64,000 bases of DNA, from assembly GCA_034530615.2 (NCBI GenBank), contig JAVRCV020000012.1:1-64000 (forward strand), in the 5' to 3' direction. Positions 13,694 to 64,000 of the stretch are shown here, piece after piece. Origin of the DNA: Aulosira sp. ZfuVER01. GTDB lineage: Bacteria > Cyanobacteriota > Cyanobacteriia > Cyanobacteriales > Nostocaceae. The position numbers and the translations under genes were made by a program. Below the pieces are notes generated by a model. It searched no databases. It worked only from the letters and a program-made list of their open reading frames with translations, and was not told where the DNA came from. The first letter of the stretch is position 1; every line of letters begins with the position of its first letter.

Positions 13694-13714
13694 ATTATAG
13701 TCACTATAGAATAA
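13688..13714. other. Putative recombination (att) junction between hupS and the element
   Basis: HupS identity ends at the ATG at 13691-13693; adjacent imperfect inverted repeat TATTATAG-TCA-CTATAGAATA. Confidence 0.6.
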
Positions 13715-13726
13715 TAAATTGCAACC

Positions 13727-15265
13727 ATGTCCGAAAAATGGTTTTATGGTCGGGTTTCGACTGTCGAACAACAAGAAGATCGCAACGCACTCAAAAAACA
13801 ACTAGAAAGGGGGAAGAATGTAGGATGCGATCGCTTTTACTGGGATATTCAAAGTCGCACAACCGAAGTGCGTAATGGGTTGCAGCAATTAATTGATGAT
13901 TTAAAAATATCACCAAAGGGTACTGTCAGCGATCTAGTTGTTACTAGGATTGACCGGATTGGGTCATCATCAAAATTATTTTACTCGCTGCTGGAAGTAT
14001 TGCGGAGTAAGAGTATTAGGCTAGTAGCACTAGACCAAACAATTGATACAGAAAGTTTGGGTGGAGAGTTGACGATTGATATTTTGCTAGCCGCCAGTAA
14101 ATTTGAAATAAAAATGTTATCCAGCCGTGTATCTGCCGAACGCAAACATCGGATGGTTCAGAGGAAAAGCCATCGGTTTGCACCGTTTGGGTGGAAGGTT
14201 GTTGATGATTCCTACATCAAGGATGAAAGTTGGTGTGTTTCGCTACTAGAAGACAAGCGTAGTTTTAGAGTTTGGGAACTGGCTTTATTTGTATTTGAAG
14301 TATTTGATAGTTGTGGTAGTGCCAGAAAAACATGCAATATATTAAATGAGATGTTTGGGGTAAGTGGGAAAGTAGACACAAAAACCACAAAATCAAAAGA
14401 GAATCATCGGATCGTGCCCGATGACATCGAGCAAATTGATTTATTGCAAAATAATAAAAAAACTTATCAACGATACCCTTGGACTGGCTTACAGTGGTCG
14501 CCAACAGGGCTAAAAAATTTTTTAGTAAATCCAGTACATGCAGGCGGAACGCCATTTAATGTCACTACATCTAGTCCGTCTGGTAAACAAATCAAGCATT
14601 TTGATCAATGGGATTGCAACTGGGATACTCATGAGGGCATAATTGCCCGCGAACAACACGAACAAATAAAACGCACTATTCGCGGAAATCGCAACAATAA
14701 GTGGGCTGCAAGAAAAGAAGATATTAACCCATTCGCCAATTTATTAAAATGTGGTAGATGTGGAGGCGCATTAACCCGGATGTCGTCCCGACGCGATCGC
14801 AATGGGCAATATACAGCATACTATCAATGTACCTACTACGCCCTTGGACGTTGCGATGCCAAGGAAATGCTTAGTAGTAAAAGTTTAGATTCACAAGTGG
14901 CTGATTTGCTAGTCAGTGAAGCTACTAGGCTAGCTGGTATGGTGGATTTTGGAGAAGACAAGCATCTTGAACCCATAGAAGTTAAAGAACTACGGGAAAG
15001 TCTAGCGGGGCTGGAAAAGTTACCTACTAATCTTTTTGTAGAGAAAGCCAAAGATGGCATCCGTGACCAAATCGCTAGTATCTTAAGTCTGCACGAAAAT
15101 CTCACAAAACGTAGCCTGTTAGTTCGAGAAGAGTTGGTGCAGATGTTCCGCGACCATGAATACTGGGACAGTCGAACATCTGAGGATAAAAAACGCATAC
15201 TAAACAAACTTGTCCGTCGTATTGTTATTGACGGGCGGGTTGTTTTGGCTATTGAGTTTCTTTAG
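13727..15265 (+). CDS. xisF: Large serine recombinase, XisF-like excisase
   Basis: YGRVSTVEQ catalytic Ser motif, YWDIQSRTTEVR, TRIDRIGSSSKLFYSLLEVLRSK, zinc ribbon KCGRCGG...YYQC...C; 512 aa, recognisably similar along its length to Anabaena PCC 7120 XisF. Confidence 0.9.
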   Translation: MSEKWFYGRVSTVEQQEDRNALKKQLERGKNVGCDRFYWDIQSRTTEVRNGLQQLIDDLKISPKGTVSDLVVTRIDRIGSSSKLFYSLLEVLRSKSIRLVALDQTIDTESLGGELTIDILLAASKFEIKMLSSRVSAERKHRMVQRKSHRFAPFGWKVVDDSYIKDESWCVSLLEDKRSFRVWELALFVFEVFDSCGSARKTCNILNEMFGVSGKVDTKTTKSKENHRIVPDDIEQIDLLQNNKKTYQRYPWTGLQWSPTGLKNFLVNPVHAGGTPFNVTTSSPSGKQIKHFDQWDCNWDTHEGIIAREQHEQIKRTIRGNRNNKWAARKEDINPFANLLKCGRCGGALTRMSSRRDRNGQYTAYYQCTYYALGRCDAKEMLSSKSLDSQVADLLVSEATRLAGMVDFGEDKHLEPIEVKELRESLAGLEKLPTNLFVEKAKDGIRDQIASILSLHENLTKRSLLVREELVQMFRDHEYWDSRTSEDKKRILNKLVRRIVIDGRVVLAIEFL

Positions 15266-15855: not shown

Positions 15856-16096
15856 GGGCGGTTAAAAACCGCACGCCAGTCGTCTCAAGTCGGGAAACCC
15901 TTTCGGCAGTTCCTCCTGGGGGGAACCCCCAAGACCGGACTGCCGACGCTCCTACGTCGCTACCGCTATGCTAACACCACGGCGCTGGCTCATCTACACA
16001 AGCAAAACTCACCTCCGTGGGTTTCAAAACCTTGATTTTTCGTTAGTTAGTCCCCGGAGGCGAACTTTGTTTGTATAGCCGCGAATTCTATTCGCC
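15856..16096. repeat. Nested small dispersed repeats (GC-rich hairpin elements)
   Basis: GC-rich island in an AT-rich spacer with concentric paired arms: GCGGTT..AACCGC, GCCAG..CTGGC, GGCAGT..ACTGCC, GGGGG-GAA-CCCCC, GACG..CGTC. Confidence 0.7.
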
Positions 16097-16190
16097 ATTG
16101 CTCAATTTGACACAGGTGCTCTCGGATAGCCGACTTTTTAATCATCGATTTAAGCGTAGAACTGCCAATGCCAAAGTTTTCGGTTAGCTC

Positions 16191-18359
16191 TTAATCATGA
16201 AAATTATCTTTCTGTCCGTTACCAACAATACCTAAGACATTCAACGGGTAAATTTTTAGGTTATCTAAAGCTTGCTGTATTTTTGAAGAATCTGTTTTAT
16301 CAATCCTTACTACTAATAAAATTCCATCAGTATTTGGTGCCAACAAACTAGCATCAGCTAGTCCCAAAAGAGGTGGTGTGTCATAAATCACTAAGTCAAA
16401 GGTATTATGGAAATCTGCCATCAGGCGCTTCATTTTTTCAGACGAGAGCAACTTTGTGGGATCGGGAGGTATAGGACCAGCTGTGATTACAGATAATTGG
16501 CTCATGGAGGGAAACTTCCGAATTACTTCCTCTGGTGGCAAATTTGTCGAAATTAAATTACTTAATCCCCACAGGTTATTTAAATTTGAAAAGCTGTGAA
16601 TCACAGGTTGACGCAGATTTGCATCTATAAGTAGTACTCTTTGCCCCATTGCTGTAGCTATTTGAGCTAGATGGAAGGCAACTGTAGACTTGCCATCACC
16701 AGATATAGCTGAACTAATAATGAGAGAACGCATCTGGCGATCGCAACTGAGAAGTTGAATGTTTGTATAAAGTACCCTCAAAGCTTCCAAAAAATTTACA
16801 GAATGGTTACTGTAGTCTTGATCTGGTATGATCTCCAATCCAGGAATACTATCAGGTGGCAAATCTGGGATTCGTACTAGGGGAAGATTTCCTTTGAAAG
16901 TAGAGGCTTGACTAATTTGGAGTTGCTTTTCAAACGGAATATTTCCTAACAATGGTAGTTTCAGCTTGTCTTTGAGATCGTTGGCACTATGGTATGTATT
17001 GTCAATTTTTTCTATGAGTAAGGCGACACCGATTGCCAATACTAAACTTATAACTAATCCCACTAGTAAATTTCTTTTGGTATCAGAAGAGGTTACAGGT
17101 TTTTCAGGCTGAATCGGCTTTTTAAGTAACTGCCATCCTAGTTCTGCCTGGGATACTTGAATTTGGAGGTTTTCGTGGGTAGATAGAAACTTATTTAGGC
17201 TCTCTGTAGTAATCTGTAATTTCCGCTGTAGTGCATTATATTGTCTTGCTAGTGCTGGCAGTCTCTTGCGTTGTAGTTCAAGCTTTTGTATGACTTTGTC
17301 TATCTCTTGTCTTTGCACGTCTAGAGTCTGAACTTGAGCCGTAGTCTCTGAAAGTTTTACATCCAAAAAGCGCTGCGCTTCATTGCGTAGCAAGGGCAAT
17401 AAGCTTTCGCGTTTATCTTTCAATGTTTGGATGGTGGGATTGTTTTCTTGCAGACGTGTTGACTCTTGGGCAATTTGAGCGTCTAATTGGCGAATCTGGG
17501 TAAGTAACTGCTGATATAACAAAGCATTGTTCAGTACAGCCGCAGATCCATCTTTTCCCTTTAAAATATCGAAATTGGAGCGAGTTTGCCCCAACTGCAT
17601 CTCAACCTTTTCTCGTTGCTCAGACAAAGCGGCGATTTGAGTATCAATCTGCTTGGCCTCGACTTCTGGGTCGTTAAATTTGTAATTTAACCGAAAAACT
17701 TGCAATTCTCTTTGGATCTGATCGACTCGATTTTGCAAAAAGGGCAGTTGTTTTTCAACGAAATGAATACCCTGGCGTAATTTAGTTTGCCGTCTTTCCT
17801 GGCTATATTCTATATATTCGTGAGAAATTCTATCTAAAACTGTTTTAATCTTCTTGGGATCGTTACTACGATACTTTACCTCTATAATCTTGGTTTCACC
17901 TAAACGATTAATCTGCAAAGCATTGATTAGATCGTCATAGCTGAGGTCTGGATATAAGACTTGCAACTGTTGAATCAGGCCACCCATAAGTTCAGGACTT
18001 TTGAGCACCTGAATTTGGCTATCGTAATCTAGACCACTTGTGGTGCTTGAGTTAGTGTCTTTGACGACATCCACCACTTTGCTGTCATCATTCACAGGTT
18101 CCACTAATAGCTCAAAACTGCTTTCATATTCTGGTTGCTTCTGGTTCAGCTTCATATTAACGACAGAAGTTACCATCACAACGGTAGCTACCCCAGCAAT
18201 TACTAGCGCTCGTCGCCTGACAAGACCAATAAATTTACGAAAACTCCAATCATTTCCCGAATCTTCAGGCTCCGGAAAAGGTTGTGGCTGGAGAGATGTC
18301 GGTACAGAGTTCTTCTTCCGGTTAGATTCTGAGAATTGATGAGAATGATTCTCCATCAT
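16191..18359 (-). CDS. wzc: Wzc/GumC-type polysaccharide co-polymerase with BY-kinase-like domain
   Basis: Two TM segments flanking a coiled coil; SSAISGDGKST Walker A, LLIDANLR, DLVIYDTPP. Confidence 0.9.
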   Translation of the reverse strand: MMENHSHQFSESNRKKNSVPTSLQPQPFPEPEDSGNDWSFRKFIGLVRRRALVIAGVATVVMVTSVVNMKLNQKQPEYESSFELLVEPVNDDSKVVDVVKDTNSSTTSGLDYDSQIQVLKSPELMGGLIQQLQVLYPDLSYDDLINALQINRLGETKIIEVKYRSNDPKKIKTVLDRISHEYIEYSQERRQTKLRQGIHFVEKQLPFLQNRVDQIQRELQVFRLNYKFNDPEVEAKQIDTQIAALSEQREKVEMQLGQTRSNFDILKGKDGSAAVLNNALLYQQLLTQIRQLDAQIAQESTRLQENNPTIQTLKDKRESLLPLLRNEAQRFLDVKLSETTAQVQTLDVQRQEIDKVIQKLELQRKRLPALARQYNALQRKLQITTESLNKFLSTHENLQIQVSQAELGWQLLKKPIQPEKPVTSSDTKRNLLVGLVISLVLAIGVALLIEKIDNTYHSANDLKDKLKLPLLGNIPFEKQLQISQASTFKGNLPLVRIPDLPPDSIPGLEIIPDQDYSNHSVNFLEALRVLYTNIQLLSCDRQMRSLIISSAISGDGKSTVAFHLAQIATAMGQRVLLIDANLRQPVIHSFSNLNNLWGLSNLISTNLPPEEVIRKFPSMSQLSVITAGPIPPDPTKLLSSEKMKRLMADFHNTFDLVIYDTPPLLGLADASLLAPNTDGILLVVRIDKTDSSKIQQALDNLKIYPLNVLGIVGNGQKDNFHD

Positions 18360-19561: not shown

Positions 19562-20911
19562 ATGAGACTTAATGAATGGATTAATCAAAAAATGTTTCCA
19601 TCCATTTCTACTCAATTAGAAGCGAAGGATCGGGATTATTTCAAGACTCAGAAAGCCTTAAAGTTATCTGTCATAACCCAGTTTTTTCCTCCAGATTATG
19701 CAGCTACAGGACAGTTAATTGAAGAACTAGTGAGGCATTTAGGGCAGCAAGGAATAGATGTTGAGGTTTTTACCAGCCAACCAGGATATGCGTTTCAGTC
19801 AGCTACTGCTCCATCTGTTGAACATTTGGATAGAGTCCGAATTCAGCGATCCCGCACAGCTCAACTTTGGCCTGGACGAATTCGTGGTAAAGCTATCAAT
19901 GGTGTCTTATATACTTTGCGTGCAGCCCTCTATCTGATGAGAGGCTGGCGTCGTAGTAATCTATTGTTGCTGACTACAGCTCCTCCTTTTTTGCCAATCA
20001 TCGGGTATCTAGCTCATACCTTTTTCCGACTGCCCTATGTATGCATACTCTATGACCTATATCCGGATATTGCGATCGCTCTAGGGGTCATATCAAAACA
20101 TAATTGGATGACACGATTTTGGCAGCAACTCAATAAAAAGATTTGGCTCAACGCCAAGGGGATCATAGTTCTGAGTCCTAGTATGAAGCAACGAGTGGTA
20201 GCAAATTGTCCACAGATAGCCGATAAAGTGTCTGTGATTCACAGTTGGGCAGACCCTCAATGGATCATACCTATTGCCAAGCATGAAAACTGGTTTGCCT
20301 GGAAGTATAACCTCGTTAAAAAATTTACCGTACTTTACTCCGGTAATATGGGTCGCTGTCATGACATAGATACTATCCTGCAAGCTGCTCAATATCTGCA
20401 TGATGAACCAATACAGTTTGTGTGCATCGGTGGTGGAGCAAAACGCAACGAGCTGATTGAGGAAGTAAAGCTATTGGGATTGAGCAACTTCTTGTTTCTA
20501 CCGTATCAAGATCAGCAAGTGCTTCCCTATTCCTTAACTGCTTGCGATCTATCACTAGTAAGTGTGGATGCATCTACAGAGAGTTTGGTCGTTCCTAGCA
20601 AGCTGTACTCAGCTTTAGCATCAGGACGGCCAATAGCAGTGATTTGTTCACAGGATTCATACTTAAGAGAAATGATTGCAGAAGCCAACTGTGGCGGCAC
20701 ATTTGACAATGGAGATGGTCATAGTTTAGCTCAATTTATTCGCTTGCTCAGTAGCGATCGGCAACTAGGGGATCGCATGGGTAAAGCGGGTCGTCAATAT
20801 TTGCGATCGCATTTCACACCAAAAATTATCTCTCAACAATACTTGGATGTTTTGCAGCAGGCGATAGTATCTGAAGGTGTGGTAACCATGTCAGAAAGCC
20901 ATACAAAGTAA
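19562..20911 (+). CDS. GT4 glycosyltransferase (WcaI/WbuB-like)
   Basis: TQFFPPDYAATG, YDLYPD, YSGNMGRCH, VPSKLYSALASGRP. Confidence 0.9.
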   Translation: MRLNEWINQKMFPSISTQLEAKDRDYFKTQKALKLSVITQFFPPDYAATGQLIEELVRHLGQQGIDVEVFTSQPGYAFQSATAPSVEHLDRVRIQRSRTAQLWPGRIRGKAINGVLYTLRAALYLMRGWRRSNLLLLTTAPPFLPIIGYLAHTFFRLPYVCILYDLYPDIAIALGVISKHNWMTRFWQQLNKKIWLNAKGIIVLSPSMKQRVVANCPQIADKVSVIHSWADPQWIIPIAKHENWFAWKYNLVKKFTVLYSGNMGRCHDIDTILQAAQYLHDEPIQFVCIGGGAKRNELIEEVKLLGLSNFLFLPYQDQQVLPYSLTACDLSLVSVDASTESLVVPSKLYSALASGRPIAVICSQDSYLREMIAEANCGGTFDNGDGHSLAQFIRLLSSDRQLGDRMGKAGRQYLRSHFTPKIISQQYLDVLQQAIVSEGVVTMSESHTK

Positions 20912-21809
20912 AAGTTCGTCTTTTCCACAATTAGATAATTCAATCAGCTTGTCACTTCTTAGTAGCTGAATATCAAGATTTTCGCTGTCGTACTCACTTT
21001 ATTTTCAGCAAAAATTGTGAATTTGGATTCTTTTCCTATGCCATAACAATTTCAATAACAAGCTTGCTATATATTAGTACAATTTAGAGGAGATCAATCG
21101 ATTATTTGAAATACCTAAAAAGCATCATCAAATTTTCAAGTTTTTACGTTTAATTTTTGACTTTCTTACAACAGTGTTGGCTATTTTAATCTGAAAGTGT
21201 CTAAGTAAGCCGCTGGGAATTACCAGAACTATATTATTAAACGTAAATATGCTTGAAATTCTTACCAATAAAGCCACTTTCTGCCAAATGACGGCAGTTC
21301 TATGCAGGGGAAACTACCACGACCTGACTGCCTTGTAAACTTGTCCAGACCATTGTCAGTTAGCTTTATTTCTGCCGACTTGACTTACATCAGGACATTT
21401 TAGATGCCAGTTAGATTAAAATTAAGTTATAAGATAATTATTTTATAACTTAATTTTTGATTGGCAAAATTCCAGGAAAATTTTGTTCTAAAAATAATGT
21501 ATTAACGTTGAAAAAAAATATGTTATACTCATATGTGTTCCAATAAACAAATGTCAGTTTATTGCCATAAAAAACCATATCTAGTAAAAAAAACTCAATT
21601 GATTTAACAAGAAATAATTAAGATTTTCTGTTAAATCAATTTGCTCAAATTGATTTACATAATTTATCAGCCAAGTAACTCTGATAAAAGAGCAATTGAA
21701 GAATTTATTGTTCATTTAGGAGATGGGCTTCGATGGTCTTATTGATCTCAGTCCCTCCAAACATAACCTTCCCAATTTTGTTGTCTATTTACTGATATGG
21801 GAGGTCAAA

Positions 21810-22238
21810 TTGCAGAGAAGGTGTGATCGAAATCGGAACCGTTCAAAACGACGTGCTATCTACTGTCCCTATCACTGCTGCTACATTGATAGCGTCAGTC
21901 AGAAATATCAACTATATGCCAATCAAGCAGGACAGTTGCAGCAGCGAGGTATAAGTCGGCGCAATGCATTGATGTTAGTAGCTAACCAAAATGCCGTGCC
22001 GATCGAGGGAGAATGGTTAGAGGCTTTTTGGTGTGACCAATGCCAGCAAACAAAGTGGTATCACATCCGTAGGTGCGGTGAGCGTACCTATGAACTTTCT
22101 CTAGCACCACGAGAGCTTTGGCAGCAAGTAACAGGAGTAATGAACCCTGATGGCAACCCCTCTGTAGGAGAGTTTACTCGCAGGCAAGCAAGAGTACTTG
22201 GCTATAAAAGCATCAAGGATTTTCATTTTGTGGGTTAG
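21810..22238 (+). CDS. Conserved hypothetical Cys-rich (probable Zn-binding) protein
   Basis: CPYH and CDQC motifs; GGAGG RBS before TTG at 21810 (ORF track starts at 21723). Confidence 0.75.
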   Translation: MQRRCDRNRNRSKRRAIYCPYHCCYIDSVSQKYQLYANQAGQLQQRGISRRNALMLVANQNAVPIEGEWLEAFWCDQCQQTKWYHIRRCGERTYELSLAPRELWQQVTGVMNPDGNPSVGEFTRRQARVLGYKSIKDFHFVG

Positions 22239-22443
22239 CATTAAAAGTTTTCTATCAATCAATACCTTCACCAAAATCCAGCACTCTAGAAGGGTGTCGC
22301 GATACGAACGCTGCCTTCTCAGCTTGTAAGGATTCAAGCCCACGCACGTGGGCTTTGTTTGTGTAGCCCCAAGTTTATAACCTGTGGGCGTTTCAGCAGA
22401 TTGGCGAAGGTATCTATCAATACCTAACCTTATTACTAGTCAA

Positions 22444-23274
22444 ATGACAGATTCTCAGCAAGAATTACTGATTGAAGCTGGACGTACAGAGCAGCAGTAT
22501 TGGAAAGACCTGTGGCGCTATCGTGAGCTATTATATTTTCTTGCTTGGCGTGACATTTTGGTGCGTTACAAGCAAACCTTTATTGGTATGGCTTGGGCAC
22601 TTATCCGACCATTTTTGACGATGGTGGTGTTCACCGTAGTTTTTGGTAATCTAGCGAAACTACCTTCAGAAGGTGCGCCGTATCCAATTTTGGTATTTGC
22701 CGCTATGCTACCTTGGCAGTTTTTTTCCAATGCTTTGGGTGAGTGTAGTAACAGTCTGATTAGTAATGCCAACCTGATATCTAAGGTCTACTTCCCACGT
22801 CTTATTGTACCCATCAGTGCAGTAATCGTCAGCTTTGTTGATTTTATAATTTCTGGCATGATTTTACTAGGATTGATGGCTTGGTATAATTTTGTGCCTG
22901 GTTGGCGGATACTAACACTACCGTTATTTATTGGTATTGCCTTTGCTGCTTCAATGGGAGTAGGGCTGTGGTTCGCAGCATTAAATGTAGAATATCGAGA
23001 TTTCCGCTATATTGTACCATTTATTATGCAATTTGGCCTGTATATATCACCAGTAGGATTTAGTAGTAGCGTTGTCCCAGAGAAGTGGCGTTTGCTCTAT
23101 TCTTTGAACCCAATGGTAGGGGTAATTGATGGTTTTCGCTGGGCAATTATCGGTGGGAATTCAAAAATTTACTTACCAGGATTTATATTATCTATGGGAT
23201 TGGTTGTCTTTTTATTGATAACTGGTATTTGGTATTTCCGTAAAATGGAACGGACATTTGCTGACGTGATTTAA
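22444..23274 (+). CDS. wzm: ABC-2 polysaccharide export permease
   Basis: LWRYRELLYFLAWRDILVRYKQT, ISKVYFPR, YRDFRYIVPF, LNPMVGVIDGFR. Confidence 0.95.
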   Translation: MTDSQQELLIEAGRTEQQYWKDLWRYRELLYFLAWRDILVRYKQTFIGMAWALIRPFLTMVVFTVVFGNLAKLPSEGAPYPILVFAAMLPWQFFSNALGECSNSLISNANLISKVYFPRLIVPISAVIVSFVDFIISGMILLGLMAWYNFVPGWRILTLPLFIGIAFAASMGVGLWFAALNVEYRDFRYIVPFIMQFGLYISPVGFSSSVVPEKWRLLYSLNPMVGVIDGFRWAIIGGNSKIYLPGFILSMGLVVFLLITGIWYFRKMERTFADVI

Positions 23275-23351: not shown

Positions 23352-24584
23352 ATGAATAAACCTACACTGTTTGAAGAAAATCTAGTGACCTTACCTTCAG
23401 ATCAAGAAGCTTCTGGCCGAACCCTTGGAGAAGAGGAATTAACTCTAATATCCGAAGTCCTCTACAGTGGCATACTTAATAGCACAAAAGGGAACTTTGT
23501 CAAAGAACTGGAAAAAAAGTTTGCTGACCTCTTGGGAGTCAAATATGTTTATGCCTGTGCATCAGGTTCAGGTGCAATACACACAGCGATCGCTGCTATT
23601 GATCCAGAGCCTGGCGATGAAATTGTTACCACTTCAATCACTGATATGGGTGCGCTGACTCCCATTCTGTACCAAGGTGCGATTCCTGTATTTGCAGATG
23701 TCGATCCTAGAACTTGGAACGTCACAGCCGAGACGATCGAAGCTAGCTTGAGCGATCGCACCAAAGCGATAATTGTCACCCATCTGTTTGGTAACCCATG
23801 TAACATGAGTGAGATTATGGAACTCGCTCAATCCCGTAATATTCCTGTAATTGAAGATTGCGCCCAAGCCTTTTTAGCTGAACATAACGGTCAAAACATC
23901 GGAGCAATTGGTGCAATTGGGTGCTTCAGTCTCCAACAAGGCAAACATATTACTACTGGTGAAGGAGGTTTAGTTACAACCAACCATGATGCCTTAGCAC
24001 GCCGAATGTTTCTATTTATCAACAAAGCCTGGGGGTATGGCGATTCTCAACCGGATCATTATTTCTTAGCCCTCAACTACCGAATGACTGAGTTACAGGG
24101 AGCAGTAGCGGTGGCACAACTCGCTAAATTGGCAAGCGTAGTCCAAAATCGGATCTCTGCTGCTAACAAACTCACGGAAAAATTACAAGGTTTACCAGGA
24201 ATAGAAACCCCCTGGATTGACCCCAGAAATATCCACACCTACTGGAAGTATTGTCTTCGGGTTGATCATCAAGTTTTACCAGGTGGAGCAGTTGGACTTG
24301 CCCAACGCTTAAAAGAAAAAGGCATTGCCTCAGCACCAAGATATATCCAAAAACCTGCCTTCATGTGCGAGATATTCCAGAAACAACAGACATTCGGCAA
24401 CAGCCACTTCCCCTTTACCTTGGCACGACCTGAGGCTGTTGATTATGATCGCTCTCGTTTTCCTGGAACCTTTGCAGGGTTAGAAAGTGTTCTAGTTCTA
24501 CCCTGGAATGAACGCTATACAGAAGAACACATCAACTACATTGCCAAGTCTCTGCACCAAGTTATTGACCAATTACGGGGGTAA
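23352..24584 (+). CDS. DegT/DnrJ/EryC1/StrS sugar aminotransferase
   Basis: IEDCAQA, FSLQQGKHITTGEGG, NYRMTELQGA. Confidence 0.95.
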   Translation: MNKPTLFEENLVTLPSDQEASGRTLGEEELTLISEVLYSGILNSTKGNFVKELEKKFADLLGVKYVYACASGSGAIHTAIAAIDPEPGDEIVTTSITDMGALTPILYQGAIPVFADVDPRTWNVTAETIEASLSDRTKAIIVTHLFGNPCNMSEIMELAQSRNIPVIEDCAQAFLAEHNGQNIGAIGAIGCFSLQQGKHITTGEGGLVTTNHDALARRMFLFINKAWGYGDSQPDHYFLALNYRMTELQGAVAVAQLAKLASVVQNRISAANKLTEKLQGLPGIETPWIDPRNIHTYWKYCLRVDHQVLPGGAVGLAQRLKEKGIASAPRYIQKPAFMCEIFQKQQTFGNSHFPFTLARPEAVDYDRSRFPGTFAGLESVLVLPWNERYTEEHINYIAKSLHQVIDQLRG

Positions 24585-24590
24585 AATCTA

Positions 24591-26263: not shown

Positions 26264-26297
26264 AGATTTATTGGACAAGTTTCACCAATTATCGATC

Positions 26298-53571: not shown

Positions 53572-53620
53572 GGCATTTTAAAACATAAATTTAGAAACAC
53601 TGAAGATTTAAATAGAATAT

Positions 53621-54331: not shown

Positions 54332-54338
54332 AATAAAA

Positions 54339-55367
54339 ATGAGAATTTTACTATCTGTTGATCCGGAAATACCAGTACCACCTAAACTCTATGGTGGTAT
54401 TGAACGCATTGTTGATCTCTTAGTCACTGGGCTGCAAGCTAGAGGACATAAAGTTGGACTAGTAGCTCACCCTGATTCTAATTCACCTGTGACTGAATTT
54501 TTCCCTTGGGTAGGCAGGCGATCGCAGAATATCTTTGATACAATCCAAAACACAATTTTTCTTTGGTCAGCAGTTCAGCAATTCCAACCTGACTTAATTC
54601 ACAGCTTTTCGCGCATTCTCTACCTATTGCCTCTACTAAACTCACGACTTCCTAAAGTCATGTCTTACCAACGCCACCCCAACAGAAAGACTACTAACTG
54701 GGGAGCAAGGCTAGGGCAAGGTTCTCTTACCTTCACAGGCTGTAGCGACTACATTTGTGATCTAGGTAAGGCAAATGGTGGCAATTGGCACACTATTTAC
54801 AACTGCGTCGAGCTAGAAAAATATAATTTTGTACCAACAGTTGCAGAGGATGCGCCGTTGGTATTTTTGAGCCGCGTAGAACGAATTAAAGGAGCGCATA
54901 CAGCTATCGCAGCCGCTCGCAAAACTGGACGGCGTTTAGTTATTGCTGGCAACTACGCTACTACTGGAGAAGAAGGACAGTATTGGCAAGAAGAAATAGT
55001 TCCTTATCTGGGAAAAGACGGCATTGAATACGTTGGTCCAGTAAACGATATTCAGAAAAATAAACTACTGGGACAAGCTGCTGCAATGATTGTACCTATT
55101 GAATGGCATGAACCTTTTGGCATTGTCTTTGTTGAGTCACTTGCCTGTGGTACTCCTGTGATTTCTTGTCCTCTTGGAGCATTACCAGAAATTTTGCGTC
55201 CCGATATTGATGGCTATTTAGTTAACAGTATGGAAGAGACTTGTACTGCAATTCAAAATTTAGCCAATATCGACCGCAAAAACTGCCGTCAACGAGTGGA
55301 GCAATGCTTTTGTGCATCTTTAATTGTTGAAAAATATGAAAATTTGTACTACAGCCTGATAAACTGA
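54339..55367 (+). CDS. GT4 glycosyltransferase
   Basis: VPPKLYGGIER, WHEPFGIVFVESLACGTP. Confidence 0.92.
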   Translation: MRILLSVDPEIPVPPKLYGGIERIVDLLVTGLQARGHKVGLVAHPDSNSPVTEFFPWVGRRSQNIFDTIQNTIFLWSAVQQFQPDLIHSFSRILYLLPLLNSRLPKVMSYQRHPNRKTTNWGARLGQGSLTFTGCSDYICDLGKANGGNWHTIYNCVELEKYNFVPTVAEDAPLVFLSRVERIKGAHTAIAAARKTGRRLVIAGNYATTGEEGQYWQEEIVPYLGKDGIEYVGPVNDIQKNKLLGQAAAMIVPIEWHEPFGIVFVESLACGTPVISCPLGALPEILRPDIDGYLVNSMEETCTAIQNLANIDRKNCRQRVEQCFCASLIVEKYENLYYSLIN

Positions 55368-55370
55368 CTA

Positions 55371-56654
55371 ATGAAACAAGTTGTTATTGTTGCTCCCCAA
55401 TTCCCCCCCTGTAACTTAACCGCAGGACATCGCTGCCGTTATTTTGCTACACATTTGCCTAAATTTGGCTGGCAGGTCAAGGTGCTAACAGTTGAGCCTA
55501 GTTATTATGAAGAGAAATTAGATTACGAATTAGAAGCATTACTGCAACCTGATTTAGAGATTATTCGCACTAAAGCATTATCTACTCGTCCACTACGCCT
55601 AGTGGGAGACATTGGTATTAGGACATTTTGGTGGCATTATCAAGCTCTCTGCCAACTTGCTAAACAACAGAAACCTGATTTAATTTATATTCCGATTCCA
55701 TCGAATTATTCAGCATTGCTAGGTATTTTGTTGTACCGTCAATTTGGTATACCTTATGCGATTGATTATATTGATCCTTGGGTAAATACTTGGCCTGGTT
55801 GTGAAGTTGTATTTAGCAAAGCCTGGTTTGCATATAACTTGAGTAAGTTTTTAGAACCGATCGCCTTGCAAAGTGTTAGTTTAATTACAGCTGTTGCTCC
55901 TGGTTACTATGAAGGAGCGTTGAAACGTTACCCTTGGCTCGATTCAGTAGAGTGTGTTGCTATGCCTTATGGTGTAGAAGCGACAGAGTTTGAATACCTT
56001 GATCACCATCCACGTCCTCCCTATTTATTTGCCCCAGATGACGGTAATTTTCATATTATTTATGCTGGGGCAATGTTACCGAAAGCTTACTCAACTTTGG
56101 AAGCATTATTTCAAGCCCTTTGTCTATTAAAAAAATCACAACCAGAATTAGCACAAAAGCTCAAATTTCATTTCGTCGGTACTGGAAAAGATCCTAGTGA
56201 TTCCGAAGGATTTAATATTAAACCTTGGGCAGAAAAATATCAACTATTGGATATGGTAACAGAATATCCTGCTCGAATTCCTTATCTAGACGTACTTAAT
56301 CATTTAAAGAATGCTCATGCAGTTTTAATTGTTGGCTCTCCTGAGCGCCATTATACGCCCTCAAAAATTTTTCAAGCTGTTTTATCCTATCGACCAGTTA
56401 TTGCACTTTTACATAAAGACAGCACAGCGGTTAGTATTCTCAAACAAGTTAATACAGGTACGGTGGTAGGGTTTGATGAACAAAGAACCGTTGATTTATG
56501 CGTTGAAGAAATTGCCCAAGCTCTAGAAAGAGTAATAAAACTTACCTATTCAACTAAAGACATCAATTGGGATGCTTTCTATGCATACTCTACTGAAGCA
56601 ATGGCAGAAAAATTAGCTCATGCTTTTAATTTAGTGATTGATCACAAGCAATAG
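55371..56654 (+). CDS. GT4-like glycosyltransferase
   Basis: PQFPP, DYIDPW, YAGA, PSKIFQAV. Confidence 0.82.
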   Translation: MKQVVIVAPQFPPCNLTAGHRCRYFATHLPKFGWQVKVLTVEPSYYEEKLDYELEALLQPDLEIIRTKALSTRPLRLVGDIGIRTFWWHYQALCQLAKQQKPDLIYIPIPSNYSALLGILLYRQFGIPYAIDYIDPWVNTWPGCEVVFSKAWFAYNLSKFLEPIALQSVSLITAVAPGYYEGALKRYPWLDSVECVAMPYGVEATEFEYLDHHPRPPYLFAPDDGNFHIIYAGAMLPKAYSTLEALFQALCLLKKSQPELAQKLKFHFVGTGKDPSDSEGFNIKPWAEKYQLLDMVTEYPARIPYLDVLNHLKNAHAVLIVGSPERHYTPSKIFQAVLSYRPVIALLHKDSTAVSILKQVNTGTVVGFDEQRTVDLCVEEIAQALERVIKLTYSTKDINWDAFYAYSTEAMAEKLAHAFNLVIDHKQ

Positions 56655-56823
56655 TCTAGTTTAATTTTGTTGACAAATTTCTCAATCATATTAATTTATT
56701 GAAGAAATCTTATATATTAAGACTCACTATTGTAACCCAGGTTAATATCTATGCCAAAAATTCATATCAAGGTTAAAATGGAGACTTGTACAAGCTTGAT
56801 CCTAATAACAATTTTCTATAGTT

Positions 56824-58293
56824 ATGACATCTGGATTTAACTTTGAGTCCCCTATAGGATTTAGCAAATATCAGAAGCGTTGGTTTGTCAAAGGTTTTTG
56901 GCTCGTTCTGATGTTAATAGTAGTAAAAATCATCACTGCTGATGCACTTTTTCTCAGTAAGATTAGTGCCTTATTAATTGCGGTAATGGCACTATTACCA
57001 GCCTATCTATGGTGTGCTGATCGTGCAAAAGGATTGCCTCTATTTCCCATAATGACACTAACATACTTGGGTTCACATGCTTTTCCCCTGATTTCAAAAA
57101 ATCCAAATGTCCTTAAGTATTCTGAAGCATTACGTTTTGATGCAGCACAAGTAGTTGCCATTTTTTTGGGAGTAGGAACAATAACTTGGCTTGCTTTCGT
57201 CAAACGTGAACCTCAAAGTATATCTAAAATTAAAGTATTTAAACCAAACCAAATAACCCCTTTCTTTCTAAACATAATATTTTTATCTATTACATTTGAT
57301 TTTTTACAGAATACAGGATATTTATGGTCAATAATACCTGGCTCGATCTACTTAATATTGAAAACTGCAATGCCATCTCTCACTAGTCTGGGATTAATGA
57401 TATTGGGTTATCAACTAGGAGCTAATCGCTTAAGTCGTGGAGAGTCCAGAATATTTATTTTACTAGTAATAGTTTTGATTTTTCAATCAGGAATTGCTCT
57501 TTACCTGAATGGCTCAGGGATATACGTAGTCTTAACGAGTTTAGGTTGGATGTTTGGCAGTGGAAAATTTCCCTGGCGATTATTATTGATAACTTTCCTA
57601 ATTATCTCGTTCCTGAATTTAGGTAAAGGACAAACTCGCGCTACTTACTGGCATAAAGGATTAATGCAACCTTCACAATATACGGCTGTATATATCACCT
57701 GGATTAATAATTCCTGGCAGCAGCTAAATCCTCCTAAAGAAAGTCTAGGTAGGCATAAGTCAAAACCAGAAAGTCTAGATGAGCGTTCAAGTCTTATACA
57801 TATGCTGATGAAAGCCATTTCTGAGACGGGAACTTTAAGAGAATATATGCAGGGAAAAACTTATTCACTTATCCCTCAATTAGTCATGCCTAGAATCTTT
57901 AACCCAAATAAGGTTCGTGGTAGTGAAGCTACCAATATGTTAAGCATTTATTATGGTTTGCAAACATATAAAGATACGCTTACAACTGAAATTTCTTGGG
58001 GTTTATTGCAGGAAGCTTATGCTAATTTTGGCAGGTTAGGTTGCGCTGGCTTAGGAATTTTCTTAGGTGGTTTATATGGATGGATTACTCGTTTGACTAT
58101 AAATGTTCCTATTACATCGTATCGATTTTTGCTATCGCTAATTTTGATCATGCTGTCAATTAAGAACGAATTGACTGTGGGGTCATTTTTGAGTGTTTTA
58201 AGTCAAGGTGCTATGCTTTTATTGCCCATCCGAAATTTATTGATGAAAACTATTACATATTATCCCTTTCAACGCTATAGCAATGCTAAATGA
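56824..58293 (+). CDS. Polytopic membrane protein, putative Wzy-like polysaccharide polymerase
   Basis: About 11 TM segments, large loop with PRIFNPNK and EAYANFG motifs; sits among glycosyltransferases. Confidence 0.6.
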   Translation: MTSGFNFESPIGFSKYQKRWFVKGFWLVLMLIVVKIITADALFLSKISALLIAVMALLPAYLWCADRAKGLPLFPIMTLTYLGSHAFPLISKNPNVLKYSEALRFDAAQVVAIFLGVGTITWLAFVKREPQSISKIKVFKPNQITPFFLNIIFLSITFDFLQNTGYLWSIIPGSIYLILKTAMPSLTSLGLMILGYQLGANRLSRGESRIFILLVIVLIFQSGIALYLNGSGIYVVLTSLGWMFGSGKFPWRLLLITFLIISFLNLGKGQTRATYWHKGLMQPSQYTAVYITWINNSWQQLNPPKESLGRHKSKPESLDERSSLIHMLMKAISETGTLREYMQGKTYSLIPQLVMPRIFNPNKVRGSEATNMLSIYYGLQTYKDTLTTEISWGLLQEAYANFGRLGCAGLGIFLGGLYGWITRLTINVPITSYRFLLSLILIMLSIKNELTVGSFLSVLSQGAMLLLPIRNLLMKTITYYPFQRYSNAK

Positions 58294-58411
58294 TCTATCA
58301 ACTTTTGTTGAGGCGAGAAATAAAGCCAATTGCGTAAGTCTTGATAGAATTAAATTTATCTATTTTTAATATATCCACAATTGAGCGAAAAAAATACAAA
58401 TTATAAACTTA

Positions 58412-59494
58412 ATGATTCAAAAGCGCATTAATTCATTTGATGGTCTCAGAGCAATAGCTATTTTCTTGGTTTTGCTAGACCATGCAAAAAATACTATTCA
58501 GTCTAAGAGCGATATTTGGAATTTAGCATCAATATTTATAGCCAATTCCAGCTTGGGAGTTAGGCTATTTTTTGTTTTAAGTGGTTATTTGATTACCATA
58601 ATCTTGTTAAAGGAGACTAATGAAAGTGGTTCTATTGATTTGAAGAGATTCTATGTACGGCGCGCAATAAGGTTATTTCCCAGTCTTTACTGTTTTATAC
58701 TGGTAGTTTTCATTCTTAACTTAACTGTTAATTTGAATATCACTTTAGAACAATTCATAGCAGCAGCAACTTTTACATGGAACTATTTAGGCCCTTTTCA
58801 CAATGGTTTGTTTACAGGAAATTGGTTTTTTGGTCATTTATGGACTCTTTCACTAGAAGAACAGTTTTACTTACTCTGGCCTCTATTATTATTATTAGGT
58901 ATTAATAAATCTCGAAAGTTATCACTTGTGCTAATTTTATCAATGCCTATTATACGCGTAGCCAGCTATTTTTTATTTCCTTCAATTAAAGGATATTTAA
59001 ATATGATGCTACATACCTCAATAGATAGTATTATGGTGGGCTGTTTGATGGCTATTCTTACTCAATTTTCTTCCTCAAACCAGCGTATATATAAATTGAA
59101 GGGATTTTCTATAGTAATATTACTTATTTGGCCATTATTCATTACTCCAATTTTAGATCACTTGATTAGAGGTTACTTAATCTCTATAGGTCTAACCATT
59201 GATGCCATAATCTTAGGAATACTGATTGCTTGGCTCCACGCTAATCCGCTTTCGTATGCAAATAGACTACTGAGTATACCATTTCTTGTTTACGTAGGCA
59301 AAATTTCTTATAGCTTATATATATGGCAGCAATTATTTTTAACTAATGAGAATGCTACTATTTCCGGAATTTTTCCCTATAATCTTGGGTTTAGTTTTCT
59401 GGCTGGAATGGCTTCTTATTACTTGATTGAAAAACCCTGTCTTAAATTCAAAGATAGTAATAAAATATCGGGATTATTAGGATTGCATAAATAA
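58412..59494 (+). CDS. Acyltransferase-3 (OafA-like O-acyltransferase)
   Basis: DGLRAIA, FFVLSGYLI, RRAIRLFP, HLWTLSLEEQFY, ISYSLYIWQ, IEKP. Confidence 0.92.
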   Translation: MIQKRINSFDGLRAIAIFLVLLDHAKNTIQSKSDIWNLASIFIANSSLGVRLFFVLSGYLITIILLKETNESGSIDLKRFYVRRAIRLFPSLYCFILVVFILNLTVNLNITLEQFIAAATFTWNYLGPFHNGLFTGNWFFGHLWTLSLEEQFYLLWPLLLLLGINKSRKLSLVLILSMPIIRVASYFLFPSIKGYLNMMLHTSIDSIMVGCLMAILTQFSSSNQRIYKLKGFSIVILLIWPLFITPILDHLIRGYLISIGLTIDAIILGILIAWLHANPLSYANRLLSIPFLVYVGKISYSLYIWQQLFLTNENATISGIFPYNLGFSFLAGMASYYLIEKPCLKFKDSNKISGLLGLHK

Positions 59495-59525: not shown

Positions 59526-60695
59526 ATGGAAAAATTAGCAATTATATCAACTCATCCTATTCAATACTACGCGCCTTGGTTTCGTCATATTGCTAATACT
59601 TACTATCTTAGGATTAAAGTATTTTATTTATGGGACTTTGGTATCAAAGCTACAATAGATATGGGATTCCAGCAGACAATCAAGTGGGATATTCCACTTT
59701 TAGATGGGTATAACTATGAGTTTGTACCCAACTTGAGCAACGATCCTGGCGTTCACACTTTTTGGGGTCTGCAAAATCCATCCCTAGCCTCGCGAGTCAA
59801 GGAATATAATCCTGATGCAGTGTTATTAATGTGCTATAATTATGCTAGTATTTATCGTTTTTTGTGGTATTGGAATTACCATCAAATACCGTTATTATTT
59901 CGTGGTGATTCTCACAGATTAGTACTACCTACTGGTACGAAAGAATGGGCAAGACGGCAGTTTATTATGCAGATTTATCGACGTTTTGCTGCTTGTCTAT
60001 ATGTGGGTAAAGCGAACTATGATTACTTCCGTTATCATGGGGTTTTAGAAAAAAATTTGTTTTTTTCTCCTCATGCTGTAGATAATGAACGTTTTTTTCA
60101 GCAAACTGAAACCGCAACCCACAAAGCAGTGCTTTGGAAGCAAGAATTGGGTATTCCATCACATCATGCAGTAATTTTATTCGCTGGCAAATTTGAACCC
60201 CAAAAATGCCCTATGGATTTATTGTTAGCTTTTTTGGAGGCAAATATATCTGATGTATCGCTGTTATTTGTGGGCGCTGGTTCCCTAGAAAAAAACCTGA
60301 AACACATAGCAAAAGGACACTCTAATATATATTTTGCCCCTTTTCAAAATCAAACATTAATGCCGCGCACATATGCATCTGCTGATCTACTTGTACTACC
60401 TAGCTATTCAGAAACTTGGGGTCTTGCTGTTAACGAAGCAATGTGCTTAGGGCTTCCAATTATTGTCAGTAACTATGTAGGTTGTGCCCAAAATCTAATA
60501 CATCAGCATCGCAATGGACTAATTTTTCCGGCAGGTAATGTATCTGCCTTAGCAAATAGCCTGAAAGAAGCATTCTCTGATCGCCAACGCTTGCAACATT
60601 GGGGAGAAGAAAGCATTAAAATCGTATCTGATTATAATTATACTCAGGCTACGCTGGGATTAAAACAGGCGCTGCAATATACACAATTACTGTGA
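59526..60695 (+). CDS. GT4 glycosyltransferase
   Basis: HPIQY, FAGKF..QK, ETWGLAVNEAM. Confidence 0.92.
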   Translation: MEKLAIISTHPIQYYAPWFRHIANTYYLRIKVFYLWDFGIKATIDMGFQQTIKWDIPLLDGYNYEFVPNLSNDPGVHTFWGLQNPSLASRVKEYNPDAVLLMCYNYASIYRFLWYWNYHQIPLLFRGDSHRLVLPTGTKEWARRQFIMQIYRRFAACLYVGKANYDYFRYHGVLEKNLFFSPHAVDNERFFQQTETATHKAVLWKQELGIPSHHAVILFAGKFEPQKCPMDLLLAFLEANISDVSLLFVGAGSLEKNLKHIAKGHSNIYFAPFQNQTLMPRTYASADLLVLPSYSETWGLAVNEAMCLGLPIIVSNYVGCAQNLIHQHRNGLIFPAGNVSALANSLKEAFSDRQRLQHWGEESIKIVSDYNYTQATLGLKQALQYTQLL

Positions 60696-60779
60696 TCTAA
60701 TACTTAAAATTGACATACATACTAATATTTATCGCTGACTTAATAATCAAACAATTAAATCTTAATTAATTCGTAATAA

Positions 60780-61949
60780 GTGATTCAACAACATTCTAAG
60801 AAACATCAATACCAATTTCATCTCTGGTTTCCTGAGCTATTCAACTCTACAGGAGGCATTCAACGTTATTCTTCTTTTTGTTTCCAGGCATTTCAAAACC
60901 TCTACCCCAATTTTACCTACGATGTATTAATTAAGCACGATACAGATATACCATCCAAATCCTCTAATTTGTGCTTTCATACAACTGGCAATTGGCCTTT
61001 ATCAATACGCACTCCAGCCTTTGCTGCTCAACTCCTTAGTCTTGGTGTTTGGCAACATCCAAACCTGGTCTTTACTACTCATCCCAACTTTAGTATTGTG
61101 GCTGATCAACTGAAAAAGTTAACTGGTCTTCCTTACTGGACTGTTGCCCACGGGATAGATGCTTGGAATATCACAAATCATAGACTAAAAACAGCCTTAC
61201 ACAATGCAGATCGCATCTTAGCTGTTAGCCACTATACACGCGATCGCCTGCTTCGAGAACAAAACCTTGACCCTGATAAAGTTGTGGTTCTCCCTAATAC
61301 TTTTGATGCTGAGAATTTTCAGATTGCACCTAAGCCTAATTACTTGCTCAAACGCTATAGCTTGAATCCACAGCAACCAATTATCCTGACAGTGGCTCGG
61401 CTTTCCCAATCAGAACAATACAAAGGCTACGATAAAATTTTGGCTGCTTTATCGCAAATTCGTCAGACTATTCCTCATGTGCATTACGTTTTGGTAGGTA
61501 AGGGAGACGATGAACCTCGAATTAAACAGCTAATTTCTCAATATCAACTCCAAGATTGCGTTACCTTAACTGGGTTTGTTCCTGATGAAGAACTTAGTTC
61601 TTATTACCATATGTGCGATGTATTTGCAATGCCAAGCAAAAGTGAAGGATTTGGTATTGTTTACCTAGAGGCTTTAGCTTGTGGTAAACCAACTCTTGCA
61701 GGTAATCAAGATGGGGCACAGGATGCTCTTTGTCAGGGAGAATTAGGCGTACTTGTTGATCCAGATGATATAGAAGCGATCGCTCAAGCCATTATTCAAA
61801 TATTACAAGGTACTCATAGTAATTCCATTCTCTATCAACCAGAAGTATTACGACAAAAAGTAATTGAGCGATTTGGCTTTGAGAGCTTTCAACAAACTCT
61901 TGGCAATTATTTAGAAAAATACTTAGGCTTATCTAAATGTGTGGTATAG
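60780..61949 (+). CDS. GT4 glycosyltransferase
   Basis: GGIQRY, TVARL...YKG, EGFGIVYLEALACGKP. Confidence 0.92.
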   Translation: MIQQHSKKHQYQFHLWFPELFNSTGGIQRYSSFCFQAFQNLYPNFTYDVLIKHDTDIPSKSSNLCFHTTGNWPLSIRTPAFAAQLLSLGVWQHPNLVFTTHPNFSIVADQLKKLTGLPYWTVAHGIDAWNITNHRLKTALHNADRILAVSHYTRDRLLREQNLDPDKVVVLPNTFDAENFQIAPKPNYLLKRYSLNPQQPIILTVARLSQSEQYKGYDKILAALSQIRQTIPHVHYVLVGKGDDEPRIKQLISQYQLQDCVTLTGFVPDEELSSYYHMCDVFAMPSKSEGFGIVYLEALACGKPTLAGNQDGAQDALCQGELGVLVDPDDIEAIAQAIIQILQGTHSNSILYQPEVLRQKVIERFGFESFQQTLGNYLEKYLGLSKCVV

Positions 61950-63748
61950 CAGGCATTCTCACAACAGATTCTCACCAACAGCATCTGGAGCAAACTATTC
62001 AGCAGATGCAAAAGTCTTTATACCATCGTGGCCCAGATGACCGGGGAATTTACATAGCCAACGAACATCAAGCTGCTCTTGCCCACACTCGTTTGTCTAT
62101 CTTAGATCTCAGCCCGGCGGGACATCAACCGATGTCTACAGCCGATGGACGCTATTGGATCGTCTTTAATGGAGAAATTTACAACTTTCAAGATTTGCGA
62201 TCGCAACTAGAATCACAAGGTGAGCATTTTTTATCCCGCACTGATACCGAAGTTATTCTCAAGCTATATCAGCGCTTCGGAAAAGATTGCGTTAACCAGT
62301 TGCAGGGAATGTTTGCTTTTGCTATTTGGGATAATCAAGACAAGACTTGTTTTATCGCTCGCGATCCTTTAGGAATTAAACCTCTTTATTACTGGCAATC
62401 TGGTGGTAATTTAGTATTTGCTTCAGAAATTAGGGCAATACTTGCTTCTGGATTACCGAATCTTTGCTTGAGTCCTCAAGGCTTATATGGCTATTTTACT
62501 AGCGGTACAGTACCAGAACCATACACCTTAATTGATGGTATTTATTGTTTAGAAGCTGGTCATTGGTTGCATTGGTATGCTGGCAGAGTTAGCCAACACC
62601 AGTACTGGCAAATTAATTTTACCAGTGATAGTAGCATATCTTTATCAGAAGCCACAAAAAAAGTCCGTCAGGCTTTGATTGACTCTATCGAACATCACTT
62701 TATTAGTGATGTACCTGTTGGTATCTTTCTCAGTGGAGGAATTGACTCAAGTTCTATTGTTGCCCTAGCACGTCAAACACAAAAAAATAAATTACGTACT
62801 TACTCGATTGCTTTTGCAGAAAATAAATGGAATGAAGGAGATATTGCTCGCAAGATAGCCCAAAACTTTGAGACTGAACATACAGAATATCTCATTACAT
62901 CTGCCATCGGCAAAGAATTATTTCCCCAATTTTTAAAAAAAATTGATCAACCAAGTATTGATGGTTTTAATACTTTTTGTGTATCTCAAATCGCTCACCA
63001 AGACAGCACTAAAGTAGTCCTATCAGGATTAGGAGGAGATGAACTATTTGGTGGTTATAAAACTTTCCAAAAAGTTCCGCAAATGGTTCGCTGGGGGCAG
63101 CAACTCCAAAAAATTCAACCGATTACTACTGCTATAGGCTGGGGATTAGCATCTTGGGGACAATCACCACAGTTAAAGCGTATAGGAGATTTTTTCCAGC
63201 AAAAGCCGACAACAGCAGCAGCTTACCGCAGTTTTAGGGGTATATTTTCTCATCAAGAAGCTGGGAATTTAACTCAGTATTATCTAAAAGATTCTTCTCC
63301 AGCAATTAAAGATAGGAATATTTTTCAAAATAGTAACCCACCTCCAAATTTTCCTTCTTTAGAAGATGAAGTAAGTTTCTTAGAATTGAATTTTTATATG
63401 CGTAATCAATTATTACGCGATAGTGATGTAATGAGTATGGCTTGGGGATTGGAATTACGAGTACCTTTAGTTGATCGGGGGTTGTTAGAAGCCATATCAT
63501 CTATTCCTTATAATCTAAGATTGGCAGCAGGTAAACAGCTATTAATTCAAGCAATTCCTGAATTACCAAGTTGGCTATTGAACCGTCCCAAGAGGGGATT
63601 TTTCTTCCCATTTCAGCAATGGATAGAAAAAGATTGGCATGATTATTTTCCACCTCATGAATTAAATCAAAAAATTGACTTAAAACTATGGTATCGTCAA
63701 TGGAACTTGGCAATTTTTCAGTATTGGTTTAATCAAACTTTCAACTAA
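61937..63748 (+). CDS. asnB: AsnB-like glutamine-hydrolysing amidotransferase (probably glycan amidation)
   Basis: MCGIAG Ntn start, HRGPD, FNGEIYN, LSGGIDSS, SGLGGDELFGGY, ELRVP. Confidence 0.9.
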   Translation: MCGIAGILTTDSHQQHLEQTIQQMQKSLYHRGPDDRGIYIANEHQAALAHTRLSILDLSPAGHQPMSTADGRYWIVFNGEIYNFQDLRSQLESQGEHFLSRTDTEVILKLYQRFGKDCVNQLQGMFAFAIWDNQDKTCFIARDPLGIKPLYYWQSGGNLVFASEIRAILASGLPNLCLSPQGLYGYFTSGTVPEPYTLIDGIYCLEAGHWLHWYAGRVSQHQYWQINFTSDSSISLSEATKKVRQALIDSIEHHFISDVPVGIFLSGGIDSSSIVALARQTQKNKLRTYSIAFAENKWNEGDIARKIAQNFETEHTEYLITSAIGKELFPQFLKKIDQPSIDGFNTFCVSQIAHQDSTKVVLSGLGGDELFGGYKTFQKVPQMVRWGQQLQKIQPITTAIGWGLASWGQSPQLKRIGDFFQQKPTTAAAYRSFRGIFSHQEAGNLTQYYLKDSSPAIKDRNIFQNSNPPPNFPSLEDEVSFLELNFYMRNQLLRDSDVMSMAWGLELRVPLVDRGLLEAISSIPYNLRLAAGKQLLIQAIPELPSWLLNRPKRGFFFPFQQWIEKDWHDYFPPHELNQKIDLKLWYRQWNLAIFQYWFNQTFN

Positions 63749-64000
63749 AAATCAATTGATCTAAATAATCACAGCAATGCTAGCAATGAATGGGAGCGTG
63801 AGAATGTGGGAAATCTCACGTTGGGTAAACATTGATGGCAGTTATTAAACTGTGTATAGATTTTATCTAACTCATCTGTAACTACGTACAGAGTATTAAT
63901 TAGTAGTGACTAAAGCAAGTGAGCTAGATAGGTTTTTCAAGTTTTTATAAAAACTCATATTACCATTCCAGTAAATGAAAGATACAAATAATTTTCATCT

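Follow-up and report, generated by a model that had tools for sequence, protein, structure and literature searches.

How hydrogenase gene hupS came to be parted from its own start by a long run of glycan genes, and whether the arrangement serves a purpose, is the question raised by the first 64,000 nucleotides of contig C12 (C12:1-64000, hereafter the window; C12 is 90,879 bp long) in the ~8-Mb genome of Aulosira sp. ZfuVER01 (G000). We find that hupS is interrupted near its 5' end by a 62,599-bp element that belongs to the already described hupS position-49 variant of excision elements; its cargo is unusual, and its mechanism is not new. Most of that cargo is a polysaccharide island, which we consider to be probably a horizontally exchanged, serotype-like accessory glycan locus that serves vegetative cells and rides in the element as a passenger, with no designed switch behind the arrangement.

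A 62.6-kb element splits hupS

Intact HupS proteins of relatives have 16 N-terminal residues more than the 3' hupS piece of G000. The DNA encoding these 16 codons occurs once in the genome, on the same contig and strand and 12 kb past the window, next to a second copy of the junction core. The initial annotation had noted, by eye, that these codons are missing from the 50 kb after the junction and had expected them further right in the same orientation, and both points are borne out. Upstream of this 5' piece lie the hup upstream region, a NifU/Rieske gene, and hyp genes. In G000, hupS therefore lies on a single replicon as two directly oriented pieces, with the element (C12:13694-76292) between them, and the frame joined across the core has 320 codons, 313 of whose 320 residues are identical to the intact HupS of relative G006. 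With a mere 8 bp common to the two junctions, exact k-mer matching that started at the left one missed the second site, which was located through the intact relatives instead.

The arm motif CTATAG-N3-CTATAR adjoins each core, and its genome-wide matches are these two sites only. A 15-bp arm stands at each end of the element, and on the predicted circle the arms are inverted and face each other across the core, with 16 of 22 positions matching. The intact XisF-family recombinase gene lies 33 bp inside the element, in the orientation opposite to that of hupS. Neither xisH nor xisI is present in the element: G000 has 15 XisH and 12 XisI matches, none of them on C12. A sigma70-like site overlaps the crossover core (13687-13715, plus strand) just before the recombinase start, in a promoter scan of 13400-19700 that fell below chance overall and is uninformative (13 sites versus 19.5 expected). 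Five more large serine recombinase matches in G000 (24-51% identity; C22:42.6-50.5 kb, C56:39.6-43.5 kb, and C57) probably mark other interruption elements.

The likeness to published systems is close. Hilton, Meeks and Zehr (2016; PMC4874684) described hupS elements at position 49 with the repeat ATGTCAT and a serine xis gene at the end in opposite orientation, and the G000 element agrees with these in core, position, and recombinase type as well as in place and orientation; its break falls within nucleotide 49 ± 10 of hupS. Their Table B lists 91 kb for Rivularia PCC 7116, 258 kb for Scytonema hofmanni UTEX 2349, and 30 kb, at position 51, for Calothrix PCC 7103, and the authors give interruption elements a mean length of 41.5 kb and a highly variable gene content. 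What differs is the cargo, here a near-complete polysaccharide island, while the words "polysaccharide" and "glycosyl" are absent from the main text of that paper. The fdxN element of Anabaena PCC 7120 (59,428 bp, XisF with XisH/XisI; PMC3141674) shares the recombinase family and a similar size but has another target gene and site, and the G000 element does not carry xisH/xisI. In Calothrix sp. NIES-4101 (PMC11249958), hupS is likewise split by recombinase-bearing insertions, and circles were detected there for nif elements; hupS is in three parts in that strain, however, with tyrosine and serine recombinases, and the accessible text does not present the cargo as a glycan locus.

Could the union of recombinase and island be an assembly error, made at the short repeat between the recombinase gene and wzc? 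Contigs do break at this repeat in all three sequencing runs that contain the stretch. The pieces nevertheless tile across it without differences and its multi-copy part is short; depth is equal on both sides (132 and 130; 789 and 798), in runs that may be the source DNA; the island's far end directly abuts the second recombination site; and the order of recombinase and wzc recurs in relative G011. We regard a misjoin as barely credible. Four runs were compared over 12200-16800, as contigs. Among those listed for them, no joint or loose end falls at the site (a further 87 loose ends and 365 pieces lie beyond those), and contigs of three runs bridge the left site; since contigs drop rare forms and these three runs, again, may be source DNA, the comparison speaks neither way on excision. 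RNA runs matched at most a 0.06 share of the searched stretch.

The cargo is a polysaccharide island that depends on other loci

Counting open reading frames (ORFs) of at least 80 amino acids (aa), and leaving aside one shadow ORF at 34205, the element has 48 ORFs, the recombinase and 47 cargo ORFs. By Pfam and NCBIfam matches, 36 of the 47 are glycan-related (one through a weak PMT_2 match); the other 11 comprise eight without clear assignment, an ISAs1 transposase, a DUF7453 gene, and a TrbI-domain gene. Measured between the stop codons of wzc and the TrbI gene, the island makes up 96% of the element. An ABC transporter pair, Wzm (PF01061) and Wzt (PF00005 and PF14524), is clustered in the element with 17 ORFs of glycosyltransferase family 2 or 4 (GT2/GT4) type, and further island genes include sugar-modifying enzymes, four methyltransferases, an acyltransferase, an amidotransferase, a PhyH dioxygenase, a carbamoyltransferase, and a DUF218 gene.

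The initial annotation had proposed an element of more than 50 kb enclosing about 35 glycan genes, which the element's length and gene tally uphold, and had called the island entire. That word goes too far: all three PF02563 (Wza) matches in the genome and all 12 PF02397 (priming phosphoglycosyl transferase) matches lie on other contigs. The island is not self-contained as a capsule or exopolysaccharide (EPS) pathway. In its conserved export genes and its variable glycosyltransferases and precursor enzymes, it resembles Wzm/Wzt (ABC-transporter-dependent) loci with a variable serotype region (PMC4390846); it differs in having Wzc, in lacking Wza and a priming transferase, and in the TrbI-domain gene at its end. 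Capsule, EPS, and O-antigen are all candidate products. Head and tail recur in a paralogous locus at C71:107-136 kb (wzc 54%, GT4 68%, wzm 85%, wzt 56%, and DUF218 62% identity), and most congeners have a match of similar identity to the head.

A search for polysaccharide clusters inside excision elements found none in the literature, most subscription journals and some supplements being outside its reach. Large cargo as such is on record, for instance in an 80-kb element that contains the remnant of a prophage (PMC3542288) and in one of 58 kb with a mobile insertion of 18.4 kb (PMC8461463).

The island is found inside and outside elements in relatives

A search of 251 genomes of the family found a close island head (85-91% nucleotide identity) in eight of the 14 congeners and in four genomes of another genus, g77. 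All copies represent one locus whose ends are conserved and whose middle differs: each of six genomes compared has matches at ≥60% to between 7 and 14 of the 48 element ORFs, and most genes of the island middle had no match at ≥60% in any of these six relatives.

In six congeners that form one rpoB clade (G002, G004, G005, G007, G010, and G014), the island is not part of the element but lies upstream of the 5' hupS piece at a distance of 4-6 kb, where it adjoins the NifU/Rieske gene and lies between two TrbI-domain genes. The idea that these six copies sit within another excision element, running from the NifU gene to hyp, was rejected: hyp is >0.4 Mb away or on other contigs. In the four g77 genomes (G135, G164, G183, and G198), the island occupies a shared chromosomal site away from hup, and hupS is intact on other contigs; neither the TrbI gene nor the recombinase has a match around the island in the stretches fetched from these genomes. 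The island of G012 is on a 41-kb contig with no informative end overlap.

The head of G000 is more similar to the g77 copies (wzc 88-90%, GT4 90-92%) than rpoB is (85.5-85.9%), and this points to exchange of the island between genera; the wzc of G000 is 80-87% identical to those of congeners, lower than to those of g77. These comparisons rest on sequence identities and single-gene quick trees.

The initial annotation made the element the source of the island's mobility, a claim that the copies of island head and tail outside the element in six congeners, and at a non-hup site in four further genomes, speak against. A stronger form of the idea would have element and island as one mobile unit, an integrative element, with the TrbI/VirB10-domain gene as a remnant of its transfer system. 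The recombinase is 93.8% identical to that of G012 while rpoB is 90.4% identical, and relatives of the TrbI-domain protein occur on 101 plasmid records. Against this, the island head is missing downstream of the recombinase gene at all 19 recombinase loci (up to 10 kb of DNA; some loci are short and some come from genomes already counted), and the element's scanned proteins include no relaxase, coupling protein, or mating-pair gene product apart from the one TrbI/VirB10-domain protein. Stand-alone genes of that kind are a family with two to six matches in each of the 15 genomes of the genus (in G000 at C39:434 and C3:445 in addition to the copy on C12), and the g77 islands lack a neighbor of this type in the stretches fetched. 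We therefore judge a single mobile unit to be highly improbable. An atlas search with the TrbI-domain protein returned only TrbI-like or unnamed clusters, and a conserved transposon-like end after the TrbI gene was considered and rejected, as no common motif was seen by eye in 36 downstream stretches.

The congeners G003, G006, and G008 have an intact hupS and no island head, only a 72-78% paralogue of it; the same cluster thus does not stand at this position beside an intact gene, in keeping with the initial annotation. They could be read as cured lines, the island and element being a one-way deletion cassette in which rare vegetative excision yields glycan-minus, hupS-intact offspring (with escape from phage or life with a plant host as possible gains), and the hup-hyp gene order of G000 is the same as that of G003 and G006. 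Yet the island head is also missing from G001, G009, and G013, in which hupS is split, and plain absence accounts equally well for the intact relatives. Such a cassette is, in our view, distinctly unlikely.

Other elements at the same site carry other pathways

The same hupS junction was seen in eight of 29 relative loci from a first search. When the count is limited to directly oriented elements whose two ends share a contig, there are 12 same-site elements, which excludes G031 (inverted), G012 (three breaks, inverted pieces), and G005, G009, G017, G277, and G279 (ends on different contigs or not found). Their sizes range from 8 to 258 kb (G000, 62.6; G002, 17.0; G004, 17.9; G007, 77.4; G010, 76.9; G013, ~53; G014, 19.3; G026, 104.0; L141, 8.4; G275, 258; G276, ~68; G278, ~80), and their cargo is unrelated. 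The 15-bp arm is kept in the same-site elements examined. Only the G000 element holds the island (one of 12; eight others were compared in full and three by Wzm query alone).

A Pfam scan that covered 54 of the 118 larger cargo proteins listed for these elements found nonribosomal peptide synthetase (NRPS) or NRPS-polyketide synthase (PKS) clusters within those of G007, G010, and G026; TonB-dependent receptors adjoin the clusters of G007 and G026, whose products may be siderophores. The elements of G013 and G014 carry transport and signaling genes. Given the three NRPS or NRPS-PKS clusters, large coherent pathways are recurrent cargo at the position-49 site, and the initial annotation's view that so large a pathway is unusual there does not hold.

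Opposite orientation of the hupS pieces, which calls for inversion rather than excision, was seen at G031:C1:4969007-4993350, at G013:C1:3285626-3344374, and in G012 (C57 and C153), where hupS is in four pieces.

The same island fills a second, different hupS element

In G011, hupS runs whole to codon 279 and is then broken by a 54,651-bp element (G011:C1:7697821-7752471) with a 3-bp core and 8-bp inverted arms. The serine recombinase of this element has 438 aa and shares just 24% identity with its G000 counterpart. This element, too, is filled by the island, in the order recombinase, wzc, head, variable middle, tail, and TrbI gene, and in the same orientation as in G000. By rpoB, G011 is not sister to G000. 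The wzc and TrbI genes of the two nonetheless cluster, with support that ranges from modest to good (85 in a group with G012; 97 in one with three other copies), and both recombinases, the 512-aa and the 438-aa types, occur in G012 and G013. The two cases may stem, on this sequence evidence, from one ancestor that had both elements, followed by local shuffling. None of 16 other loci of the 438-aa recombinase has wzc beside it (1.5-kb flank).

The codon-279 site is neither of the hupS positions that Hilton et al. list (49 and 610; PMC4874684). The G011 recombinase is 90-93% identical to those of four genomes of other genera and 82-83% to those of congeners, and 16 of the 251 family genomes have a close match.

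Excision and the role of the cargo

By analogy with known elements, the XisF-family recombinase would join the two 8-bp cores late in heterocyst differentiation, yielding a 320-codon hupS behind its own promoter and a 62.6-kb circle, with XisH and XisI probably supplied from other sites in the genome as helpers. Excision of elements late in heterocyst development is described in section 3 of PMC4874684; excised circles were detected in PCC 7120 and NIES-4101 and persist in heterocysts (PMC11249958); and elements of A. cylindrica are described as deleted from the heterocyst genome (bioRxiv 10.1101/629832). In PCC 7120, the nifD and fdxN elements do not share in the up-regulation seen across the nif region, genes for envelope polysaccharide are switched on early (PMC3141674), and the P450 protein of the nifD element is found in vegetative cells and not in heterocysts (PMC1079853). 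On the strength of these points, and of a divergent island control region that lies inside the element and escapes the cut, we favor a vegetative role for the cargo without designed coupling to excision.

The initial annotation instead linked activation of the hydrogenase to envelope remodeling in heterocysts. The island would then be kept inside the element since excision alters its expression there and remodels the surface along with hydrogenase activation. That the island makes up so much of this element and also fills the different one in G011 fits such a switch, as does the reported deletion of A. cylindrica elements, with which cargo could be lost. The locus lies outside any hupS element, however, in six congeners and four other genomes, and 11 of the 12 same-site elements do without it; the reported circles persist; the wzc/GT4 control region is inside the element and untouched by the cut; and late excision sits poorly with early expression of envelope polysaccharide genes. 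Genes of the heterocyst envelope polysaccharide (HEP) island are elsewhere too: the two HepA-family matches that exceed the NF045513 cut-off fall on C83 and C39, and none is in the element. We hold the coupling to be unlikely.

What we find probable, as stated at the outset, is a position-49 element with a passenger island. A wzc/wzm/wzt locus with conserved ends and a variable middle would have been exchanged horizontally between genera. In this genus it would have become linked to the hup region and changed places among three sites around hupS, of which two are inside elements. In vegetative cells the island is most likely active from promoters of its own and relies on other loci for export and priming. 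A place inside the element would cost it little because excision falls in nondividing cells, and the island may in turn help the lineage to keep the element, because excision in a vegetative cell would take the glycan with it.

Two observations weigh against this explanation. The island fills two different hupS elements nearly from end to end, which neutral accumulation predicts poorly. The island head is present in nine of the 15 genomes of the genus, all nine with a split hupS, and absent from the three with an intact one, a count over related genomes. The orientation of the island is identical in all three positions near hupS, which fits block moves as its presumed route between them. In a more adventurous reading, hupS elements of this genus are selected carriers of the glycan island, caught or kept twice by two recombinases of 24% identity at two hupS sites, since excision silences or dilutes the island in heterocysts or gives glycan-minus vegetative variants. 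We think this rather unlikely. If it were true, programmed excision would act through cargo besides repairing a gene, and the NRPS/PKS clusters of sister elements would likewise be pathways restricted to one cell type.

Hilton et al. (PMC4874684) posed it as an open question whether hosts gain from interruption elements. This genus offers a natural experiment on it, with the glycan locus in a codon-17 element (G000), in a codon-279 element (G011), just outside (six genomes), or not found (six genomes), and with sister elements that carry whole NRPS/PKS clusters; such a series bears on whether genes on an excised circle remain expressed in heterocysts.

Table 1. Features of the split hupS locus and of compared loci (window positions unless a contig is named)
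Feature	Position	Strand	Basis or remark
hupL, uptake hydrogenase large subunit, intact, outside element	11114..12709	-	PF00374
3' part of hupS, codons 17-320	12779..13693	-	PF01058 and PF14720; comparison with relatives
8-bp crossover core ATGTCATT, 3' junction	13686..13693	-	second copy at C12:76292-76285
Part of 62,599-bp element within window	13694..64000	.	junction comparison; element ends past window
15-bp arm of recombination site	13695..13709	-	
XisF-family large serine recombinase, 512 aa, intact	13727..15265	+	Resolvase, Recombinase, Zn ribbon; NF041201, 524.8 bits (cut-off 375)
Short genome-wide repeat between recombinase and wzc	15884..16118	.	contig break point
Wzc-like polysaccharide co-polymerase/tyrosine autokinase	16191..18359	-	one island end
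Divergent wzc/GT4 control region	18360-19561		within element
Conserved island head: GT4, 171-aa unknown, Wzm permease	19562..23274	+	
Strain-specific middle: DegT aminotransferase, oxidoreductases, acetyl-/methyl-/acyltransferases, EamA pair, Wzt, GT2/GT4 enzymes, DUF4082/Ig protein	23352..59494	+	
ISAs1-family transposase, intergenic	31040..32179	+	NF033564
Wzt within island middle	39604-40887	+	
Island tail start: two GT4s, amidotransferase	59526..64000	+	
Island tail past window: GT4s, PhyH dioxygenase, GT2, DUF218, carbamoyltransferase	to C12:72825		
DUF7453 gene	C12:73061-74254	-	
TrbI/VirB10-domain gene	C12:74540-76243	+	
Second arm and core	C12:76269-76292		beyond window
hupS codons 1-16 (5' piece)	C12:76340-76293	-	intact HupS of relatives; beyond window
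NRPS/NRPS-PKS cluster, G007	G007:C1:7537445-7577132		
NRPS/NRPS-PKS cluster, G010	G010:C1:91409-133747		
NRPS/NRPS-PKS cluster, G026	G026:C22:125804-185000		

Further observations on the hup region

The NifU/Rieske gene upstream of hupS is flanked by a paralogous pair (C12:77067-78122 and 80256-81269), whose counterparts cross-match at ~75% nucleotide identity. The gap after this gene (C12:79770-80256 and counterparts) is a hotspot of insertion and breakage: it holds TPR-CHAT genes in G011 and G009, a 1886-aa ORF in G013, and the island in six genomes, where hyp is far off. In G009, the 5' hupS piece is at a contig end and the 3' part has no match in the assembly. Several congeners have a second hupS elsewhere, and G003 has a tandem hupSL duplication (G003:C1:8366173-8375099), with 84-85% and 92-94% identity to G000.

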